From a virus (Duplodnaviria > Heunggongvirae > Uroviricota > Caudoviricetes), in the IMG/VR virus record IMGVR_UViG_2541047953_000002: a stretch of 28,241 nucleotides of DNA; one strand, given 5' to 3'. Under the pieces are notes generated by a model. It ran no database searches and was not told where the DNA came from. It saw only the letters and a program-made list of their open reading frames with translations. Made by a program: the position numbers and the translations under genes. Shown in pieces: positions 3,307-20,404 of this stretch (the first letter of the stretch is position 1; each line of letters opens with the position of its first letter).

Positions 3307-3464
3307 CTACGGCAGTGCTGGCCATTCAATATCCTGTGCAGTTGACGTATCAACACGGTTCAGCAATACCCGATACTTTTTCCATGCTTCCAGCAACGAG
3401 ATTTCTTCCTCCGTTGCAATTTCCAGATCTGCAGCATCCTGAAGCGGCGCAATATGCTCACTGG
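3307..3464 (-). pseudogene. C-terminal remnant (~52 codons, no start) of a tail fibre assembly protein Tfa
   Basis: Manual translation gives ...[29 protein letters not shown], matching the Tfa C-terminus as recalled; the frame differs from the adjacent terminase gene and has no start codon. Confidence 0.6.
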
Positions 3465-4889
3465 CTACACAATGGTCGGGTCAATCCCGCCAGTATCCCA
3501 GCAGATACGGGATATCGACATTTCTGCACCATTCCGGCGGGTATAGGTTTTATTGATGGCCTCATCCACACGCAGCAGCGTCTGTTCATCGTCGTGGCGG
3601 CCCATAATAATCTGCCGATCAATCAGCCAGCTTTCCTCACCCGGCCCCCATCCCCATACGCGCATTTCGTAGCGGTCCAGTTGGGAGTCGATACCGGCGG
3701 TCAGGTAAGCCACACGGTCAGGAACGGGCGCTGAATAATGCTCTTTCCGCTCTGCCATCACTTCAGCATCCGGACGTTCACCGATTTTCGCTTCCCACGT
3801 CTCACCGAGCGTGGTGTTCACGAAGGTTTTACGTTTTCCCGTATCCCCTTTCGTCTTCATCCAGTCTTTGACAATCTGCACCCAGGTGGTGAACGGACTG
3901 TACGCCGTCCAGATGTGAAAGGTCACACTGTCAGGCGGTTCAATCTCTTCACCGGATGACGAAAACCAGAGAATGCCATCACGGGTCCAGATCCCGGTCT
4001 TTTCGCAGATATAACGGGCATCAGTAAAGTCCAGCTCCTGCTGACGGATGACGCAGGCGTTATGCTCACAGAGATAAAACACGCTGGAGGGGTCATCCGG
4101 CATCCATTTGAGGCCAAACGGCGTCTCTTTGTCGCCAAATTTAAGGTACTGCTCCTCCCCGCAGTGCGGGCAGGCAACATGAAAACGCATAAAATGCGGG
4201 GATTCACTGGCTGCACGCTCAATCTGGCAGGTGCCTCTCACTTTGGGCGTGGAGCCACGGATGGACTTTGGCCAGACCGAGCCTTCAATACGTTTGTCGC
4301 CAAGGAACGTCGGAGAGCCTTCCTGTTCAATATCCTCATCAAAGGCAGCAAGTTCATCATAACCCGCCACATCCACCGACTTTTCACGGTAGTTTTTTGC
4401 CGCTTTACCGCCCAGGCACCAGAAGCCACGACCATTGGTGAAACGCTTCATAGTGAGCGTGTTATCCCGGTGCTTTTTGCCATACCACGGAGCCAGCGCC
4501 AGCAGCGACGGAATATCGCGGATGGTCGGCTCAACGTGGGTTTTCATAAAGTTCTCGGCATCACCATCCGTCGGCAACCAGATAAGTGTGTTGCGCTGCT
4601 TATGCTCTATAAAGTAGGCATAAACACCCAGCAGCATTTTGGAATAACCGACACGGGCAGACTTCACCACATTCACCTCACGGATGTAGTCGCTGCCCAT
4701 CGCATTCATGATGGCCCGCTGAAAGGGCAGTGTTTCCCAGCGCCCTTCCTGGTATGCGGATTCTTTCGGGAGATAGTAATTAGCATCCGCCCATTCAACG
4801 GCGGTCTGTGGCTCCGGCCTGAACAGTGAGCGAAGCCCGGCGCGGACAAAATGCCGCAGCCTGTTAACCTGACTGTTCGATATATTCAC
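3465..4889 (-). CDS. Terminase large subunit, lambda gpA homologue, C-terminally truncated (474 of ~641 aa) at a deletion junction
   Basis: Protein matches lambda gpA from [14 protein letters not shown] through ...GGIDPTIV as recalled, then stops; lambda continues YERSKK. Confidence 0.9.
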
Positions 4890-6632: not shown

Positions 6633-6650
6633 ATTTTATTATTGAATACA

Positions 6651-6824
6651 TCAGATTAAATTAATCTTGACATCATAGCTTTCAAGACCCGTCATTTTTT
6701 CCCGTGCGGTAAACTGAATACTGGTAACTTCTTTCCCGGTCTTTTTCTTAAGTTCAATAATTTTTTTTGTTATATATTCAGAAATATCTGCTTCTGCTTT
6801 TGTTTTTAAGTTTTCAATATTCAT
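6651..6824 (-). CDS. gnsB: Gns-family small protein (57 aa; secG/fabA suppressor family)
   Basis: Manual translation MNIENLKTKAEADISEYITKKIIELKKKTGKEVTSIQFTAREKMTGLESYDVKINLI; Gns family by similarity recalled from memory; below ORF-track cutoff. Confidence 0.7.
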   Translation of the reverse strand: MNIENLKTKAEADISEYITKKIIELKKKTGKEVTSIQFTAREKMTGLESYDVKINLI

Positions 6825-6995
6825 CATTTCCTCTTTTAGTCTGTTATGACTTTCCAGTTACACAGTAAGTCGATTATATGGTGCAAACGTGTAAAAGATA
6901 AGATGAAACATCGCAATAATCAACATACGATAGTCTAAATTTTACACAAACAGACAAAGAGAATTTTCCTGAATTATCAATGCAATAGCATCAAA

Positions 6996-7151
6996 TCAAC
7001 TCAAGAGCCTTATTGCTGCTTCCAGAATTTCTTCTGAAGTAACATGTCGATCCGCGGCTACATAAATGACTTTATGATCTCCGGTCAGAGATGGAAACCC
7101 TGCGGCCATTACAGTAAGGTGTGTTTTTTCGCCATTTGGATATTCACGCAT
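6996..7151 (-). CDS. ynfN: Small prophage protein (51-aa form; a 76-aa form could start at 7226)
   Basis: ORF track 6996..7268 starts at TTG; the 51-aa start matches the K-12 length from memory; a terminator at 7271-7290 argues against the longest form. Confidence 0.5.
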   Translation of the reverse strand: MREYPNGEKTHLTVMAAGFPSLTGDHKVIYVAADRHVTSEEILEAAIRLLS

Positions 7152-7270
7152 GATGGTGTTAACTCCAGTCATCGCTGGCACTACCACTGCTGGTTCAGAG
7201 TTAAAAAAAACTATGATTTTTTTCATGATGTTACCGTAGTATGTGAGTATCCATCGAATAGACACCAAGC

Positions 7271-7290
7271 AAAAAAGCTCCCGAAGGAGC
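7271..7290 (-). terminator. Intrinsic terminator (hairpin gctcc/ggagc plus T6) in the cspI 3' region
   Basis: Seen directly; T-tract immediately follows the stem on the minus strand. Confidence 0.45.
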
Positions 7291-7497
7291 CTTCATTTTC
7301 ACTTTTTTAAATCCAACGACAGACGGCTGGCATTTAAGTATTGTGAAATATTATCAAATGTAATCATCATTGATTTACAAAAGATACATTTTGCCCCGAA
7401 AGGATTCATGTCAGAAACATCAAAAGATGATGTTCTATACTGGGAACCATGACAACACGGGCATCTAAAGTGAATATGGTTTGTAATATTGTCTACC

Positions 7498-7710
7498 TCA
7501 AAGCGCCACTACATGAACAGCGGCAGGACCTTTAGGTCCGTTCTCAATACCAAATTCAACTTCCTGATTCTCAGTTAATGTTTTGAAATCGTTGCTCTGA
7601 ATTGCTGAGAAATGGACAAACACATCTTTGCTGCCATCTTTCGGCGTGATGAAACCAAAACCTTTTTCAGGGTTAAACCATTTCACTAAACCAGTCATTT
7701 TGTTAGACAT
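7498..7710 (-). CDS. cspI: Cold-shock protein CspA family (70 aa)
   Basis: Protein [38 protein letters not shown]... with RNP1/RNP2 motifs. Confidence 0.95.
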
Positions 7711-8072
7711 AATTATTACCTTTTGAAGAAATTAGCCCTTGGGCAGAATGGTCCGAAAAAAAATATCAGAGAGAAAAACCAACAAGGAAATCTCAAGAGG
7801 TACAAATAATAAAATTATAACAATGACTGCTTCAGATAAATTTGTAACAAACCAGAACACCATTAACGCATGATTAACCACCCATAGCAAGGATTACTTT
7901 TGTAAAGAAAAACACAGCAATGAAAGAATAGCTTTATTTATTAATAAAACGTGTCATTCTGATTAAGACCTTTTATCTTACCCTTAAGATTTCAGGAATT
8001 TTGGCTCATGGAAGAGTCCTTTTTATTTAAATTTTACATTCCGCGATGTAAATGTTCCGATTTAATATTACC

Positions 8073-9096
<1,024 letters not shown>

Positions 9097-9100
<4 letters not shown>

Positions 9101-9408
9101 AGATATTTATGATGAGGACGCTCGTGCTTATTGGCAGGATTTTCAATCTTAAAGGAGTACTGATGCTGCAGATAAGACTCAACTTTTTCTGACAATTTTT
9201 CTGCTACTTCCAGGAAGACTTGCCGGACGCTCCTTCTGGCTGCTGCCTCATAAAACTCCAGCGCAGCTCCTTCAACACGGTCCATGGCGACATCCAGGTC
9301 AAAAATTTCACCGTCAAAGCGTTCTTTGTCCTGTAAGGCTACAGTTACCGTAACTTTATTCTCAAAATTACGGACTCCTTTCACAACCAGTTCATAGTCT
9401 TGAGTCAT
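9097..9408 (-). CDS. ydfR: DUF1327-family prophage protein (103 aa)
   Basis: ORF track; strong Shine-Dalgarno (AGGAG); ATGA overlap with the lysozyme start. Confidence 0.8.
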
Positions 9409-9412
9409 TGGA

Positions 9413-9628
9413 TTACTCTCCTCTCGCAGCCTTACGCCTGTCTTCTTTAATCTTGAAATAAAGATTTGTCAGATACGTCAGCAGGCCAAAAACCAGGCTA
9501 CCCAGCACACCGATTGCAGCCCACTGTGACGGAGTTACTTTATCGAGTAACTGCAATGCCCAGAAACCAGCATTACCCGCCGATGTGCCATAGGCAACAC
9601 CTGTTGTTAACTTATCCATTGATTTCAT
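9413..9628 (-). CDS. essQ: Class II-like holin with dual-start motif (71 aa; second start at 9619)
   Basis: N-terminus M-K-S-M resembles the holin/antiholin dual start; two TM segments; ORF track reports a longer frame 9413..9703. Confidence 0.85.
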
Positions 9629-9847
9629 ATCCTCACCCCGATGTACACGGATGGTGCAATATGTTTGAAAAGATCGGAGTCTACGGGGTAGTTTTGACAG
9701 CACACGTTGTTCTCAACGGCGCTAAAAAAACATACACATTAAAAATGTGGGTAATTATTTTGAAAGAAAGTCATATATAAAATAATAATACGAGAAATGT
9801 TTTCATATTTAGTGTACTGTATACGGCCATTTATACAGGAAAAGCCT

Positions 9848-10018
9848 ATGTCAGAACGTAAAAACTCAAAATCACGCCGTAATTATCTCGTTAAATGTTC
9901 CTGCCCAAACTGCACCCAAGAGTCAGAACACAGTTTTTCAAGAGTACAAAAAGGTGCCCTTTTGATCTGCCCTCATTGCAACAAAGTATTCCAGACAAAT
10001 CTTAAAACTGTAGCCTGA
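9848..10018 (+). CDS. Small zinc-ribbon protein (56 aa; CxCxxC...CxxC)
   Basis: ORF track 9797..10018; internal ATG with AGGA at ~7 nt; four conserved-looking cysteines. Confidence 0.5.
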   Translation: MSERKNSKSRRNYLVKCSCPNCTQESEHSFSRVQKGALLICPHCNKVFQTNLKTVA

Positions 10019-10080
10019 TTGATTTTATTAGTAACAAGTATTTTTTATATTTTAATAATATATTTAAAGCAGATAATAAA

Positions 10081-10100
10081 AAACCCGCCTGAGCGGGTTT
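10081..10100. terminator. Bidirectional intrinsic terminator between the convergent zinc-ribbon gene and cspB
   Basis: Stem aaacccgc/gcgggttt with loop ctga; T-run on the minus strand, weaker T-run on plus. Confidence 0.6.
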
Positions 10101-10381
10101 GAGATTGTGGTGCTTTTTGTGGGAGTCATCCACTTACGCACTTTGTTTTGCCATGCCAGCAGTTAGCTTCTGCTGTAAAACTATTCATGCAGCAAACCTG
10201 CACTTCACCACAATGGTTAGCATACTTTTCCTGATTAAGATTTTGCCAAATATGCTAGCCATTGTTTCATGTATTGGACCTCCTTACTTTTTATTAAAGA
10301 GATCCAATATTCACTACTCTGTCCGTATCTCTACTCAGGCATCAGCCTTCTTCGTTATCGTATACAGACGAGCGATGAATT

Positions 10382-10597
10382 TTAATCAGTAATGATGACA
10401 TTTGCTGCTGCAGGACCTTTAGCACCACTCTCTATAGAGAAGGTAACCTTTTGACCTTCAAATAAGGTTCGATAATTATCATTCTGAATCGCAGAAAAAT
10501 GCACAAACACATCTTTACTACCATCAACAGGAGAAATAAAGCCGAAACCTTTATCAGCGTTAAACCATTTTACTAAACCAGTCATTTTATTTGACAT
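10382..10597 (-). CDS. cspB: Cold-shock protein CspA family (71 aa)
   Basis: Protein [38 protein letters not shown]... Confidence 0.95.
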
Positions 10598-10897
10598 TCT
10601 ACATTCCTTAACTTGAGCCTTTCGGCATAAATGGTTTGCATAACAGAAACGACTTCGTACTTAATTGGAGAGACTCAAAGAAGGAATAAGTGAATAACAC
10701 CTGAAATGAGAACTGCTTTAGTAAACTACTTCGTATATCGTCTGTTCTTCAAACCGACGCAATCATTAACGCATAGTTGAACATATGAAGCAATGTTTAT
10801 TTTAGACATCCAGCCATCTTCAACCCCATCAAAAAACTATAGCTTTCTTCAGGAACGTGTGTATAGTGCGCCAAGTTATCAGTATTAAGGAATTTTT

Positions 10898-11110
10898 TTG
10901 TCCCGTAAAATGACAGGAATTGTCAAAACCTTTGACGGCAAAAGCGGCAAGGGTCTTATCACCCCATCCGATGGTCGTATCGATGTCCAGCTTCATGTTT
11001 CAGCGCTCAATCTCCGCGATGCAGAAGAAATTACCACCGGATTACGCGTGGAATTTTGCCGGATAAATGGTCTGCGTGGCCCTTCAGCTGCCAATGTTTA
11101 CCTTTCATGA
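10898..11110 (+). CDS. cspF: Cold-shock-like protein (70 aa; start codon here is TTG)
   Basis: Protein [41 protein letters not shown]...; divergent from cspB. Confidence 0.85.
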
Positions 11111-11402
11111 GCTATATTAAAGCTTTAATTTCAGGCCCCATCGGATCACACATGGAGAGTTTTTATGAATAACCCCGTCTGTCTTGATGACTGGTTGATT
11201 GGCTTTAAAAGCTTATGCTGTACTTTGGCCGTAATAGCTCTGCTAATAATATAATAAGCAGACTCATTGTGTTTAGGGACATTGTACTGGAAGAAAACAT
11301 TTTAAACATCAGGCAAATAACCAAGTCACCAGCTAAATAATAAGTTAACAGACATGAGTCCCGGGATGAGATTCAACATTACCATTGCCCCATTTAAAGC
11401 AC

Positions 11403-11426
11403 AAAACCCGCTCATCAGCGGGTTTT
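11403..11426. terminator. Intrinsic terminator; candidate tR' for the late promoter on the minus strand and terminator for cspF on plus
   Basis: Stem aaaacccgc/gcgggtttt with T-rich flanks on both strands. Confidence 0.6.
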
Positions 11427-11464
11427 CTACTTTTTCTTAACGTCGGGTATACAAAGCCCATCGT

Positions 11465-11500
11465 TGAAAAAATTTTATCCATATTTTTTGAAAAATGCAA
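11465..11500 (-). promoter_or_regulatory. Candidate late promoter PR' (-35 TTGCAT, 17-nt spacer, -10 TAAAAT) immediately downstream of Q
   Basis: Hexamers read directly on the minus strand; position matches lambdoid PR'/qut architecture. Confidence 0.5.
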
Positions 11501-11531
11501 ACATCATGTCGCCATCTTCAGCAAAAATCAT

Positions 11532-12284
11532 TTATCTCGTCACCTTCCTCAATTGCGCTTCCGCGTATGCTTCTTCCTGCCAGCACTTTGTTACCAGTTT
11601 ACCAATGACGTCCGCATACCCCTTATACCACTGATAATCGGTCAGGTCTGGTACCAGCTTCTGGACATGACGTCGTGCCAGCGTGGTCGGTAAACGACTA
11701 AACCGGTTTCCATTACAACGCCCACAAATCTTATATACCGGTACGCCATGAAACCGGGTTCTTTTTTCATCCAGAACAATCCCTTTACCCTTACACCCTC
11801 TGCACGCTGTGCTGGCTTCGCCCTTACCATGGCAATGCTGACATAGTTCCTTCACCCATTCTTCCTTGATTACAGATTCCCCGCGTCTGTAGTGTTTCAC
11901 CACTTCGCGCAATACATTATAAAATCCCGTACCTGAACAATGCTCACAGCGAGCCTTACTTGCCGCAGACCTGGAGTAATCAGCAAAGGCAAAACTCACG
12001 AGGTAAGGAATAATCTGTAACCGGATTTCTTCACTCAATTTGTTCAATGTCGGGTTATCCAGTGCCATCGCGTAATTTAGCAGGCCTTCAATCGCAAACT
12101 GAGGGTCCTGAACACCAACTTTTGCCAGAAATAAGGCCAACCCAAGTGGTGCTTTCGACTGCACCATCCCCTGCGCTGCCATTACATCCGTAATTGTTAA
12201 ACAACCGGTGCCTGTCGCTGGAGCGTCATCGCTCAATTTTGGAGATTTTGGGGAGTAATATTTTGGTAAGGCTTCAAGGTTCAT
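11532..12284 (-). CDS. quuQ: Late-gene antiterminator Q homologue (250 aa)
   Basis: ORF track 11532..12314; ATG at 12284 has GGAG at ~7 nt; Cys-rich zinc-binding region. Confidence 0.9.
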   Translation of the reverse strand: MNLEALPKYYSPKSPKLSDDAPATGTGCLTITDVMAAQGMVQSKAPLGLALFLAKVGVQDPQFAIEGLLNYAMALDNPTLNKLSEEIRLQIIPYLVSFAFADYSRSAASKARCEHCSGTGFYNVLREVVKHYRRGESVIKEEWVKELCQHCHGKGEASTACRGCKGKGIVLDEKRTRFHGVPVYKICGRCNGNRFSRLPTTLARRHVQKLVPDLTDYQWYKGYADVIGKLVTKCWQEEAYAEAQLRKVTR

Positions 12285-12297
12285 GCTCGTTCTCCAC

Positions 12298-13063
12298 TTA
12301 CGCCAGTACGCCAATTGCCAGCGCGCGATCGATAAAACGAAATATCAGCTCCAGTTGGGAGCCATACTTATCTTCAAATGCCACTGTATCCGTATGCAGC
12401 TCGTTGTGATGCTTTCTGCACAAAGGCAACACAAAGAGATCATGTGCTTTTGTTCCCATTCCGCCCTGCCCGTGACCAATCAGATGATGCGGATCGTCGG
12501 CTGGCATACCGCAGCAAGCACACGGCTGTGTCTTAACCCAACGTGTGTATTTCTCCTTAACCCAGCGGCGACGTTTAGGCAGCTTCATGAAAGATTCCGG
12601 AGACTCTGGATCAACGGTGATGCTTACCACCGTCTTTTCCTGTGGTGATTTTTGTTGCTGGTGGGCGTAAGGCAACGGTGCAAGATTTTTTGTGCGTTGT
12701 TTCAATATGCTGGTGGCGGTCTGCTCTCCCGGTACGATGTCGCTTTCGCGGTACACCGAGCAGATTTTTTCCGCTGGTAATCCCAGCAAACGACGCGATA
12801 CAGCCTCAGGTAGTGCATCCACCACCTGATTGCAGACCGCCCACCAGGATAATTCAGCCAAAGATAATTCCCGCTCCTGCGTACCGCTTATTGCGTGACG
12901 GATGACGTCAATCACCCATGCTGTCAGATTTTGTTGAGCAAGCAGCTCCAGTGATTCCGATGTCTGGTCACGCAGTTGGTTGTCGCAGTGCCAGCACAAC
13001 ACCATTGCGCCGGTACCATAACGGTGAATGACTGTTTCAGTGTGATGGTAATCGCCATTAGGC
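12298..13063 (-). pseudogene. ydfU: ydfU (DUF968, HNH-motif protein) C-terminal 255 codons, separated from its 5' part by an IS66-family insertion
   Basis: HNH-like motif CACCGMPADDPHHL...HH; frame and length reconstruct a 349-aa gene once the IS and one duplication copy are removed. Confidence 0.8.
13056..13063. repeat. 8-bp target-site duplication CATTAGGC (left copy) of the IS66-family element
   Basis: Identical 8-mer at 15596-15603 directly abutting the other IS end. Confidence 0.8.
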
Positions 13064-13148
13064 GTAAGCGTAAACTGACCGCCGTATGTAGCCATCAGAC
13101 GAGAATTGGTAACTTAGACGCCCATCTGATATAGACGGACATCTAAGT

Positions 13149-13574
13149 ATGGAATTACAGGACTGGCGAAAAGAACCTCGTAAAAACTATTCGAATGAAT
13201 TCAAACTTCGTATGGTGGAACTGGCATCACAACCTGGAGCTTGTGTTGCACAGATTGCACGTGAAAATGGCGTCAATGATAATGTTATTTTCAAATGGCT
13301 CAGGCTCTGGCAGAACGAAGGGCGTGTTTCGCGGCGTCTTCCGGTAACGACCTCTTCTGACACTGGCGTTGAATTATTACCTGTAGAAATAACGCCGGAT
13401 GAGCAGAAAGAACCTGTGGCGGCCATTGCGCCGTCTTTATCCACTTCCACTCAGACCAGAGTCAGTGCCAGTTCCTGCAAGGTGGAATTCCGTCACGGTA
13501 ACATGACGCTGGAAAATCCATCGCCAGAGCTGCTCACAGTGTTGATCCGTGAACTGACCGGGAGGGGAAGATGA
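13149..13574 (+). CDS. IS66-family accessory protein TnpA (HTH, 141 aa)
   Basis: ORF track; first gene of the IS66 triad; 4-nt overlap with tnpB. Confidence 0.85.
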   Translation: MELQDWRKEPRKNYSNEFKLRMVELASQPGACVAQIARENGVNDNVIFKWLRLWQNEGRVSRRLPVTTSSDTGVELLPVEITPDEQKEPVAAIAPSLSTSTQTRVSASSCKVEFRHGNMTLENPSPELLTVLIRELTGRGR

Positions 13575-13921
13575 TCTCACTCCCATCAGGTACCCGTATC
13601 TGGCTCGTTGCCGGCGTTACCGATATGCGTAAATCCTTCAACGGACTGGGAGAACAGGTACAACATGTGCTGAATGATAATCCCTTCTCCGGTCACCTGT
13701 TTATCTTCCGTGGCCGACGGGGTGACACCGTCAAAATTCTTTGGGCTGATGCTGATGGTCTGTGCCTGTTCACCAAACGCCTGGAGGAAGGCCAGTTTAT
13801 CTGGCCTGCGGTACGTGACGGCAAGGTATCCATTACCCGCTCGCAACTGGCAATGCTCCTCGATAAGCTGGACTGGCGCCAGCCAAAAACATCCAGCCGT
13901 AACTCACTGACAATGTTGTAA
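13571..13921 (+). CDS. IS66-family TnpB (116 aa)
   Basis: Characteristic N-terminus PSGTRIWLVAGVTDMRKSFNGL. Confidence 0.9.
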   Translation: MISLPSGTRIWLVAGVTDMRKSFNGLGEQVQHVLNDNPFSGHLFIFRGRRGDTVKILWADADGLCLFTKRLEEGQFIWPAVRDGKVSITRSQLAMLLDKLDWRQPKTSSRNSLTML

Positions 13922-13951
13922 AAAACTCCTGACCGCATTATAAAAACGGTC

Positions 13952-15565
13952 ATGAGTCAGAAATACCTCATTCGCATCGCAGAGCTGGAAAGGTTGCTCT
14001 CTGAGCAGGCTGAAGCCCTCCGTCAGAAAGACCAGCAACTGAGTCTGGTTGAAGAGACGGAAGCCTTCCTGCGCTCTGCACTGACACGTGCCGAAGAAAA
14101 GATCGAAGAAGATGAACGGGAAATAGAACATCTGCGGGCTCAGATAGAAAAACTGCGCCGGATGCTGTTCGGTACCCGTTCTGAAAAACTGCGTCGTGAA
14201 GTTGAACTGGCTGAGGCTCTGCTGAAACAACGTGAACAGGACAGCGATCGTTACAGTGGGCGGGAAGACGATCCTCAGGTTCCCCGCCAGTTGCGACAGT
14301 CGCGCCATCGTCGTCCGTTACCGGCACACCTTCCCCGTGAAATACACCGCCTGGAGCCAGAAGAAAGCTGTTGCCCGGAGTGTGGCGGTGAGCTGGATTA
14401 TCTGGGGGAAGTCAGCGCTGAACAGCTGGAACTGGTGAGCAGTGCCCTGAAAGTGATCCGCACAGAACGGGTAAAAAAAGCCTGTACAAAATGTGACTGT
14501 ATTGTTGAAGCACCGGCGCCGTCCCGCCCGATAGAGCGTGGTATCGCGGGCCCCGGATTACTTGCCCGCGTGTTAACGGGAAAATACTGCGAACATCTGC
14601 CACTGTATCGTCAGAGTGAAATCTTTGCCCGCCAGGGTGTCGAACTGAGCCGGGCCTTACTCTCCAACTGGGTTGACGCGTGCTGCCAGTTAATGACACC
14701 GGTGAATGATGCCCTGTACCGTTATGTAATGAACACCCGCAAGGTTCACACTGATGACACACCGGTAAAGGTACTGGCACCGGGTCAGAAAAAGGCGAAA
14801 ACAGGGCGTATCTGGACGTATGTCCGGGATGATCGCAATGTGGGTTCGTCATCTCCTCCAGCGGTCTGGTTCGCGTACTCGCCGAACCGGCAGGGGAAAC
14901 ACCCGGAGCAACACCTCCGCCCCTTCCGGGGTATCCTGCAGGCGGATGCGTTCACAGGTTACGACAGGTTGTTCAGTGCAGAACGTGAAGGTGGTGCACT
15001 GACAGAAGTTGCGTGCTGGGCCCATGCCCGGCGAAAAATCCACGATGTATACATCAGCAGCAAAAGTGCGACGGCAGAAGAAGCCCTGAAGCGAATCAGT
15101 GAACTGTACGCCATCGAGGATGAAATACGGGGATTACCGGAGTCAGAGCGTCTTGCCGTCAGGCAGCAGCGAAGCAAAGTGTTACTGACGTCGCTGCATG
15201 AATGGATGGTGGAGAAGAATGGTACGCTGTCGAAAAAATCCAGACTGGGCGAAGCGTTCAGCTATGTACTGAATCAGTGGGATGCCCTCTGTTATTACAG
15301 TGATGACGGTCTGGCGGAGGCGGATAATAATGCTGCGGAAAGAGCGCTTCGTGCAGTCTGTCTCGGAAAGAAAAACTTTATGTTCTTTGGCAGCGATCAC
15401 GGCGGCGAGCGTGGAGCACTGTTGTACGGGCTGATCGGCACCTGCCGTCTGAACGGTATCGATCCGGAAGCGTATCTGCGCCATATCCTGAGCGTACTGC
15501 CGGAATGGCCTTCCAACCGAGTTGACGAACTCCTGCCATGGAACGTAGTACTCACCAATAAATAA
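13952..15565 (+). CDS. IS66-family transposase TnpC (537 aa)
   Basis: N-terminal coiled coil, CxxC...CxxC zinc finger, and conserved CWAHARRK / NNAAERALR motifs. Confidence 0.9.
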   Translation: MSQKYLIRIAELERLLSEQAEALRQKDQQLSLVEETEAFLRSALTRAEEKIEEDEREIEHLRAQIEKLRRMLFGTRSEKLRREVELAEALLKQREQDSDRYSGREDDPQVPRQLRQSRHRRPLPAHLPREIHRLEPEESCCPECGGELDYLGEVSAEQLELVSSALKVIRTERVKKACTKCDCIVEAPAPSRPIERGIAGPGLLARVLTGKYCEHLPLYRQSEIFARQGVELSRALLSNWVDACCQLMTPVNDALYRYVMNTRKVHTDDTPVKVLAPGQKKAKTGRIWTYVRDDRNVGSSSPPAVWFAYSPNRQGKHPEQHLRPFRGILQADAFTGYDRLFSAEREGGALTEVACWAHARRKIHDVYISSKSATAEEALKRISELYAIEDEIRGLPESERLAVRQQRSKVLLTSLHEWMVEKNGTLSKKSRLGEAFSYVLNQWDALCYYSDDGLAEADNNAAERALRAVCLGKKNFMFFGSDHGGERGALLYGLIGTCRLNGIDPEAYLRHILSVLPEWPSNRVDELLPWNVVLTNK

Positions 15566-20070: not shown

Positions 20071-20404
20071 GAAAAATCCCCCAGAGAATTGTCTGGGGAC
20101 ATTTTAGAATGGTTCAAAGGGGACATTACAGCTTGGTGTTAACAATAGCCTGCTTCTCCGTGCCTTTCGGCACGTAAGAGGCTAACCTACATGTGTCTAG
20201 CATGAAATTGGCCTCAGATTAATGTTAAGCGTCTTGCAGGACGCGTAATGTTAACTGGGGCTTTTCTCTATCTGCCGTTGGTGTCCATGCCCGAGGCAGA
20301 TAGCCTCAAGCACCCGCAGTCATTCTACTTAACTAAGATTTCCCCGCAAACCGTTTTTGTCCAGCACAGTAAATATCCAACTAAACCAATGGAGTTCGCT
20401 GTAT

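Follow-up and report, generated by a model that had tools for sequence, protein, structure and literature searches.

The minus-strand interval between the antiterminator gene quuQ (ydfT) and the lysis genes of a 28,241-nucleotide (nt) caudoviral sequence (IMG/VR record IMGVR_UViG_2541047953_000002; hereafter the window, meaning this whole stretch of DNA) very probably opens with the late-gene control unit of prophage Qin, built like the PR'-qut-tR' region of phage lambda. Window positions 9700-12400 are 100% identical to E. coli K-12 MG1655, where they fall in prophage Qin, and to a large number of other E. coli strains, and at least 80% of this 2.7-kb segment is present in about 1600 of 5426 complete E. 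coli genomes. Published K-12 data on the identical sequence show that transcription starts at about 11465, that a sigma70-associated pause follows some 16-17 nt later, and that an RNA 3' end lies at 11399. Window positions are converted to NC_000913.3 by adding 1,630,957, and NC_000913.2 coordinates equal those of NC_000913.3 minus 1976, which was checked with the end of dicA (1646365 in a table based on version.2, 1648341 in version.3). The coordinates of all features are collected in Table 1. A first-pass annotation made from the letters alone had placed a TTGCAT-17-TAAAAT promoter, a hairpin, and then a convergent cspF and cspB here, and the sequence bears out each of these placements.

The promoter begins 31 nt after the quuQ stop codon on the minus strand. 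The promoter and pause element line up with the sequences that follow Q in lambda, P22, and phi80; in this alignment, lambda reads TTGACT-17-TAAATT-TGACTC-AACGATGGG and Qin reads TTGCAT-17-TAAAAT-TTTTTC-AACGATGGG; the AACGATGGG at +1 to +9 is identical to the pause element plus GGG discriminator of both lambda and P22 PR'. In lambda PR', AACGAT (+1 to +6) is a -10-like element that is rebound by sigma70 region 2, GGG (+7 to +9) is the discriminator, and the pause falls at +16/+17 (Bird 2016). The GenBank record of phi80 has the same layout, with TTGCAT annotated as the -35 hexamer of pR', Q binding annotated in the same spacer, a -10 hexamer, and a terminator about 55 nt later. The promoter had been called near-consensus, which overstates the match, as the -10 hexamer fits the consensus at five of six positions but the -35 hexamer fits TTGACA at three of six (four of six in the TTTGCA-18 register taken by the scan). 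In this AT-rich region, consensus scans returned 10 promoter-like sites, compared with 7.2 +/- 2.4 in shuffled sequences, and 6 terminator-like sites, compared with 2.8 +/- 1.9; taken alone, these scans are not above shuffled expectation and were not used as evidence. The credibility of the PR' module rests on homology and on published K-12 data, not on the consensus match.

Differential RNA sequencing in K-12 identified a cluster of class I reverse-strand transcription start sites (TSSs) at 1640444-1640447 (NC_000913.2), corresponding to window 11463-11466 (Romero 2014). The Cappable-seq supplementary tables consulted contain no entry at the PR' start site. The tables from RNET-seq of sigma70-bound complexes, with reads aligned to NC_000913.2, use a TSS at 1640446 (window 11465) and list pauses at 1640433, 1640430, and 1640429 on the minus strand (Sun 2021, Supplementary Data 1 and 2). 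The pause score at Qin, 6881, is the fourth highest in the sigma70 delta-greAB G1d list, a class equated with the lambda PR' mechanism (Sun 2021). Separately, in phage PhiR42_1 (L002 2561-2716; window open reading frame (ORF) 11345-11500, minus strand) a 51-aa "hypothetical protein" is annotated over the PR' -35 hexamer, start site, and terminator. This ORF is probably spurious because its TTG start lies within the -35 hexamer, upstream of the mapped TSS.

Downstream of the pause element, the tR' hairpin has the core CCCGC-TGATGA-GCGGG at 11422-11407, with A/U pairs extending the stem to 11426-11403, followed by TTTTGTGCTTT. Term-seq recorded an "orphan" 3' end at 1642356 on the minus strand, window 11399, in all three growth conditions, and the flanking sequence given for it is exactly the tR' hairpin (Adams 2021). 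Together, the TSS at 11465 and the 3' end at 11399 define an RNA of about 67 nt. The first-pass annotation had predicted an RNA running from 11465 to about 11395, to be checked by rapid amplification of cDNA ends or RNA-seq; the published mapping, at 11463-11466 and 11399, agrees with this prediction. Its wider claim, of a PR'/pause/tR' arrangement directly after the Q gene that yields a short 6S-like RNA, is likewise supported by the TSS, the pauses, the 3' end, and homology.

The module is conserved among relatives. Our comparison set comprised 80 viral-contig loci with a Q protein 93-100% identical to QuuQ, 79 of which have sequence after Q. The -10-like pause element lies exactly 66 nt past the Q stop codon in all 79; it is the exact AACGATGGG in 73, and the six variants (AATGAT, GACGAT, AACAAT) retain A2 and T6, which are critical for sigma70. 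The 17-nt spacer is also highly conserved. By per-sequence folding, a GC hairpin plus U-tract starts at +38 to +44 in 36 of 38 distinct RNA variants, and 25 different tR' hairpin sequences occur among the relatives (e.g., CCCGC/GCGGG, CCUCGC/GCGAGG, and ACUCGC/GCGAGU). The hairpin thus holds its position and structure although its sequence changes, a pattern characteristic of a functional terminator. Per-sequence folding replaced RNAalifold for this assessment; on 30 sequences (with the Stx2a_EH1910 row disregarded), RNAalifold gave only a weak 5' stem (-2.3 kcal/mol) and no terminator, whose alignment was thrown off by indels. From the pause element to the hairpin, the sequence varies between lineages. 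In the phages SfV, mEp460, Stx2c, and Stx2k, Q is 93-94% identical to QuuQ and the promoter-pause-terminator segment about 84-86% identical to that of Qin, and these modules diverge from Qin in the region leading from the pause element up to the hairpin; in the SfV record, the homologous terminator is an annotated feature. A separate observation concerns phage HannyBb (L015 767-919, 2472-4761), in which a different Q allele is followed by its own PR'-like segment, 80% identical; about 1.5 kb beyond, what is left of the quuQ 3' end is joined by another PR'-tR' and the csp island, making two tandem late-promoter modules.

The tR' hairpin also resembles a terminator when read on the plus strand, where a 10-pair stem at 11403-11426 is followed by CTACTTTTTC, a T-tract at 11427-11436 that faces cspF-ynfS. 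It was in fact only this plus-strand reading that the terminator scan listed, as the interrupted U-tract of the minus strand failed the scan's rule. It could therefore be argued that the hairpin serves mainly as the terminator of the convergent cspF-ynfS genes and that the minus-strand promoter and short RNA are incidental. In keeping with this, the A-rich run GAAAAAGTAGAAAA ahead of the stem, which gives the plus-strand U-tract, is seen only in csp-carrying copies and is missing from the csp-less copies of the SfV type. However, the minus strand has a strong 3' end, whereas Term-seq shows no plus-strand 3' end at 1642370-1642399 (in data taken at 37 C only, where cspF may be silent). In addition, the hairpin is also kept in copies that have no convergent gene, and so cannot be mainly the cspF-ynfS terminator; we regard this explanation as very unlikely. 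A milder form, in which tR' is bidirectional and shared by PR' and the cargo, is a tentative possibility to which we give somewhat less than an even chance.

The 67-nt RNA is predicted to fold stably, with a minimum free energy of -26.2 kcal/mol (z = -5.55 relative to shuffled sequences). No Rfam family reaches its gathering score on this RNA. The Rfam matches found at an E-value threshold (isrK, isrJ, Trp leader, rnk leader, and others, at 14-18 bits) were rejected as chance matches driven by the terminator hairpin. The Qin RNA resembles StxS (Stx phages) and IsrK (Gifsy-1) in being a short, constitutively made transcript whose end is set by the first terminator after an antitermination-controlled prophage promoter (Sy 2020), although Rfam scans detected no sequence relationship to either, and the Qin RNA is not known to have a regulatory target or a strong association with Hfq. 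The RNA might itself be functional in the lysogen, as a trans-acting regulatory RNA. It is produced constitutively, all three Term-seq conditions show abundant 3' ends for it, and its two-hairpin fold is stable; transcripts of the PR'-tR' type can turn into Hfq-bound small RNAs (sRNAs), which has been proposed to be common (Sy 2020), and "cspF.ydfT.IGR" is among the RNAs captured in Hfq RIL-seq. Against this, cspF.ydfT.IGR, represented by 70 chimeric fragments and 2 partners, received from a RIL-seq-based classifier a probability of only 0.0024 of being an sRNA, and the isrK match of 16.6 bits (gathering score 50) is at the level of several unrelated, terminator-driven matches. Moreover, as the region from pause element to hairpin differs between lineages, no conserved seed is evident. 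A regulatory role in trans therefore seems improbable to us. As a further observation on this RNA, AACG, its first four bases, can pair with a CGUU located 15-25 nt downstream in Qin (11439-11465), SfV-type phages, lambda, P22, phi80, and Stx2a_EH1910, with differing intervening sequence; in the relative L083, the G4-C24 pair is replaced by a compensated A-U. This pairing could be a 5'-terminal stabilising stem or could reflect a constraint at the DNA level.

The identity of the Q protein determines which late promoters are suitable for comparison. Three unrelated Q families are recognized, Q-lambda (PF03589), Q21 (PF06530), and Q82 (PF06323) (Yin 2022). QuuQ matches PF03589 with 181.3 bits (cutoff 26.7; E = 3.6e-54), and at E <= 0.01 the only other Pfam match is DnaJ_CXXCXGXG (35 bits), with neither PF06323 nor PF06530 detected. 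Its identity to lambda and P22 Q is 33% across the full protein, and phmmer aligns it with lambda Q in PDB 7UBM from one end to the other (E = 4.6e-36). By sequence, then, QuuQ is classified in the lambda Q family, and the right comparison for its qut is therefore lambda, P22, or phi80. The first-pass annotation had instead named phages 82 and 21 as comparators, whose Q proteins belong to the wrong families. The late promoters of these two phages follow the same logic of promoter, sigma70-dependent pause, early terminator, and Q loading (Bird 2016; Yin 2022), but phage 82 pauses at +25/+26 with a different -10-like element (Bird 2016), whereas Qin pauses at 13-17 nt. A qut of the phage 82/21 type is ruled out for Qin by the PF03589 assignment of QuuQ, the lambda-type element, and the pause position.

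Compared directly with lambda, Qin has a Q of the same Pfam family, a promoter directly after Q, the same 6-nt gap between -10 and +1, the identical pause element and discriminator, a sigma70-dependent pause at about 16-17 nt, a constitutive short terminated RNA, and lysis genes downstream. Qin differs from lambda in its -35 hexamer (TTGCAT rather than TTGACT), in a spacer that matches at only part of its positions, in a duplicated CxxC pair in Q, and in 1.76 kb of cargo ahead of the holin gene. Its tR', at about +40 to +67, also comes earlier than that of lambda, which is located at +194; early terminators are likewise found in P22 and phi80. The duplicated CxxC pair lies in the zinc-ribbon arm, within an insertion of about 40 aa (residues about 121-159) that is missing from lambda and P22 Q. 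This insertion adds a second CxxC...CxxC pair, which accounts for the DnaJ_CXXCXGXG match, and it is shared with phi80 gp17 and Stx2a_EH1910 Q.

Overall, we favor the following mechanism. As the K-12 data show, RNA polymerase carrying sigma70 starts at about 11465 on the minus strand and, with sigma70 retained, pauses about 16-17 nt downstream, and the RNA ends at 11399; AACGAT, backed by GGG, is by its identity with lambda PR' the element that region 2 rebinds at this pause. QuuQ, when made, would bind the DNA between -35 and -10, where the 17-nt spacer is, by analogy with lambda and phi80, the putative Q-binding element (QBE), and would load onto the paused complex, as its homology to lambda Q suggests. 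The QuuQ-loaded complex would then be expected to ignore hairpin terminators, namely tR', the stem-loop at the 3' end of cspB, and the second intrinsic terminator (10100-10081). Readthrough would run antisense over ynfS and cspF, sense through cspB, and antisense over ynfU into essQ-ydfR-rrrQ-rzpQ.

Several points weigh against this mechanism. The -35 hexamer of PR' is weak, and the pause positions may be off by 1 nt through counting convention. The spacer TTTTCAAAAAATATGGA agrees with that of lambda PR', TATTGAATAAAATTGGG, at 11 of 17 positions (hand alignment); given this and the zinc-arm insertion in QuuQ, the DNA site may differ in detail from that of lambda, in which the zinc-ribbon arm touches QBE positions 11-13 (Yin 2022). 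QuuQ binding and Q-dependent readthrough are steps that we infer from homology, gene order, and complete phage genomes with the same segment. Term-seq also recorded a minus-strand 3' end at 11231 (1642188), 168 nt past tR' on the late strand and in one condition only (second block), which suggests some Q-independent readthrough of tR' or another, unmapped start site. Lastly, the prophage is degraded in this host, with an IS66-family element interrupting ydfU just upstream, and QuuQ may therefore rarely or never be expressed. The module could accordingly be a relic here, with the promoter, pause, and terminator still firing, QuuQ never produced, the control of lysis lost, and the csp genes as the sole selected functions. 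The annotation of Qin as cryptic, the IS66-family insertion in ydfU, the second transposase-like gene upstream, and a promoter of its own for cspB are consistent with such a state. However, quuQ is intact, encoding a protein 100% identical to the Q of the deposited phage PhiR42_1, and the module is unmutated, so we consider the relic state rather unlikely. It concerns the present use of the module in this host and is thus compatible with a lambda-type control unit.

Table 1. Late-control module of prophage Qin and neighboring features (window coordinates).
Feature	Position	Strand	Remarks
quuQ (ydfT)	11532-12284	-	antiterminator Q, lambda family by sequence, 250 aa; stop codon 11532-11534
PR' -35 TTGCAT	11500-11495	-	read from sequence; nearly invariant in 45 distinct variants
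Spacer TTTTCAAAAAATATGGA	11494-11478	-	17 nt; expected QBE position
PR' -10 TAAAAT	11477-11472	-	6 nt ahead of +1, as in lambda PR'
+1 and sigma70-dependent pause element	11465-11457	-	AACGAT +1 to +6; GGG discriminator +7 to +9
Short PR' transcript	11465-11399	-	about 67 nt, 6S-like; 5'-terminal stem (11465-11439) plus terminator hairpin
sigma70-associated pauses	11448-11452	-	13, 16, and 17 nt from TSS (Sun 2021)
tR' intrinsic terminator	11426-11399	-	stem AAAACCCGCU/AGCGGGUUUU (11426-11403), loop GAUG, tail UUUUGUGC ending at 11399
Variable cargo slot	9641-11402		1.76 kb between tR' and holin; ynfS, cspF, cspB, ynfU here
ynfS	11165-11254	+	29-aa small protein, antisense to late transcription; Pfam PF23697; K-12 annotation
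cspF	10898-11110	+	cold-shock-domain protein, convergent with PR'; Pfam CSD, 77.8 bits
cspB unit	10366-10759	-	cspA-type 5' untranslated region; own TSS at about 10759
cspB coding sequence	10382-10597	-	co-directional with late transcription; Pfam CSD, 109 bits
Second intrinsic terminator on late path	10100-10081	-	bidirectional; plus-strand reading ends ynfU (terminator scan)
ynfU	9848-10018	+	putative zinc-binding protein, antisense to late transcription; Pfam PF23499
Lysis cassette	8073-9628	-	essQ 9413-9628 (holin), ydfR 9097-9408, rrrQ 8567-9100, rzpQ 8073-8570; presumed destination of Q-dependent readthrough

Between tR' and the holin gene, the sequence behaves as an exchangeable slot. 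Homology with the SfV, mEp460, Stx2c, Stx2k, and sal3 phages covers the 3' end of the Q gene, the promoter, and the hairpin and extends no further than 11403; mEp460 homology to the window resumes at 9640, just before the holin gene; this break and restart delimit the 1.76-kb interval as the slot. Among the 80 relatives, the slot is taken by a csp island in about 23 loci, by orf47 together with a DNA methylase gene (as in SfV) in about 20, several of which also have mEp460 ORF 051, and by a short ORF followed directly by a holin gene (as in sal3) in 14, with other combinations in the remainder. After tR', SfV and mEp460 carry orf47 and the DNA methylase gene, the Stx2c phage the same genes and then stx2, and the Stx2k phage orf47, a helix-turn-helix gene, tRNAs, and then stx2, where Qin has ynfS-cspF-cspB-ynfU; stx2A occupies the same slot of Stx2c- and Stx2k-converting phages about 2.2-2.6 kb after the same module. 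The Q-PR'-csp-holin segment of Qin recurs in phage PhiR42_1 at 99.96% identity over 2301 nt, with close copies in the deposited genomes of 2H10, HannyBb, PhiR63_1, and Tritos; the records of PhiR42_1, 2H10, HannyBb, and Tritos are complete phage genomes. The csp genes had been described as unusually placed, but the slot routinely holds varied cargo, and five deposited phages, four of them with a complete cspF/cspB island, carry csp cargo, as do about 23 of the 80 relatives. For lambdoid phages, it is ordinary to have cargo between Q and the holin gene, even when some of its genes run on the opposite strand.

Within this slot, the csp genes are morons, that is, self-contained cargo. GC content is 34-40% across 9650-10850, as against 45-52% in quuQ/ydfU and the lysis genes, and partial islands occur, with phage Tritos lacking 11358-11101 (ynfS and the end of cspF gone) and contig L083 lacking ynfS and cspF. 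A promoter of its own is mapped for cspB, at the class I TSS 1639740 (NC_000913.2; window 10759) detected by differential RNA sequencing (Romero 2014); the cspF terminator is a scan prediction. Rfam RF01766 matches at 10366-10758 on the minus strand with 158.8 bits (gathering score 78). The slot boundaries, partial islands, GC content, and cspB TSS thus uphold the earlier description of cold-shock morons between PR' and the lysis cassette. The interval from tR' to cspB contains no large ORF in the late orientation in the window ORF list. The small protein YnfS has been detected by epitope tagging (VanOrsdel 2018), and a plus-strand Term-seq 3' end at 1641060 (window 10103) falls at the ynfU terminator (Adams 2021).

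Two further observations were made inside the slot. Abundant Term-seq 3' ends at 10267 and 10269, downstream of cspB (Adams 2021), are the most abundant of the region, and they fall on the start codon of an 11-codon ORF, MKQWLAYLAKS (10235-10270, minus strand), which lies 112 nt past cspB behind a strong Shine-Dalgarno sequence, AAGGAGGT. A 7-bp stem, GGAUCUC...GAGGUCC, contains this Shine-Dalgarno sequence just ahead of the 3' ends, which are probably a processed, stem-protected end of the cspB mRNA and not a terminator. Just after ynfS, a perfect TATAAT at 11250-11255 on the plus strand is located 6 nt ahead of a published class II forward TSS at 1640243 (NC_000913.2; window 11262); transcription from this TSS would yield an RNA of about 170 nt that runs into the plus side of the tR' hairpin, antisense to the stretch just past tR'.

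The geometry of the slot raises the question of whether cargo and switch are functionally coupled, with tR' shared with cspF-ynfS and with collision or antisense silencing plus a boost of CspB, or whether, alternatively, the 67-nt RNA acts in trans like StxS. We consider this combined explanation unlikely. If coupling were true, induced Q-modified polymerase running head-on through ynfS, cspF, and ynfU would silence some of the cargo by collision or antisense RNA, and co-transcribed cspB would raise the level of the RNA chaperone CspB during late gene expression.

In the K-12 annotation, in which Qin is labelled a cryptic prophage, the genes follow one another along the minus strand as ydfU, ydfT (quuQ), ynfS and cspF (both on the plus strand), cspB, ynfU (plus strand), essQ, ydfR, rrrQ, and rzpQ. 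The lysis cassette has Pfam matches to Phage_holin_2_1 and DUF1327. Directly after it, in the late orientation, lies cspI, with a second cspA-type thermoregulator (7471-7856, minus strand), which is the second copy of Rfam RF01766 in the window, followed by ynfQ, ynfR, ynfN, and gnsB (about 6650-7860); cold-shock genes are therefore found on both sides of the lysis genes. Upstream of quuQ, the IS66-family element occupies 13149-15565 (plus strand) within ydfU, and its three ORFs match HTH_Tnp_1, TnpB_IS66, and DDE_Tnp_IS66. The truncated ydfU spans 12298-13095 (minus strand) in the window, compared with an intact 1050-bp ydfU in K-12 MG1655, so the window derives from a strain other than MG1655; the second transposase-like gene is located further upstream of this insertion. 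Elsewhere in the window, Rfam matches above the gathering score were found for IS009 at 3341-3535 (minus strand, 132.6 bits) and for the hokD sok antitoxin RNA at 20144-20315 (minus strand, 104.1 bits).

Literature searches on quuQ/ydfT, Qin, cryptic-prophage late promoters, and the SfV late promoter returned no explicit description of a Qin PR' or 6S-like RNA, and neither Sun 2021 nor Adams 2021, as far as they are searchable, ties the pause or the 3' end to a Qin late promoter. The Qin module is an unannotated instance of the textbook lambda-type late switch that is already visible in public K-12 datasets. With this recognized, the "orphan" Term-seq 3' end can be assigned an origin, as can a pause that ranks among the strongest sigma70-dependent ones in published E. 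coli K-12 data. The same Q-PR'-tR' module lies directly upstream of stx2c and stx2k in toxin-converting phages and presumably drives them, so the harmless K-12 copy might be used as a stand-in for studying it.

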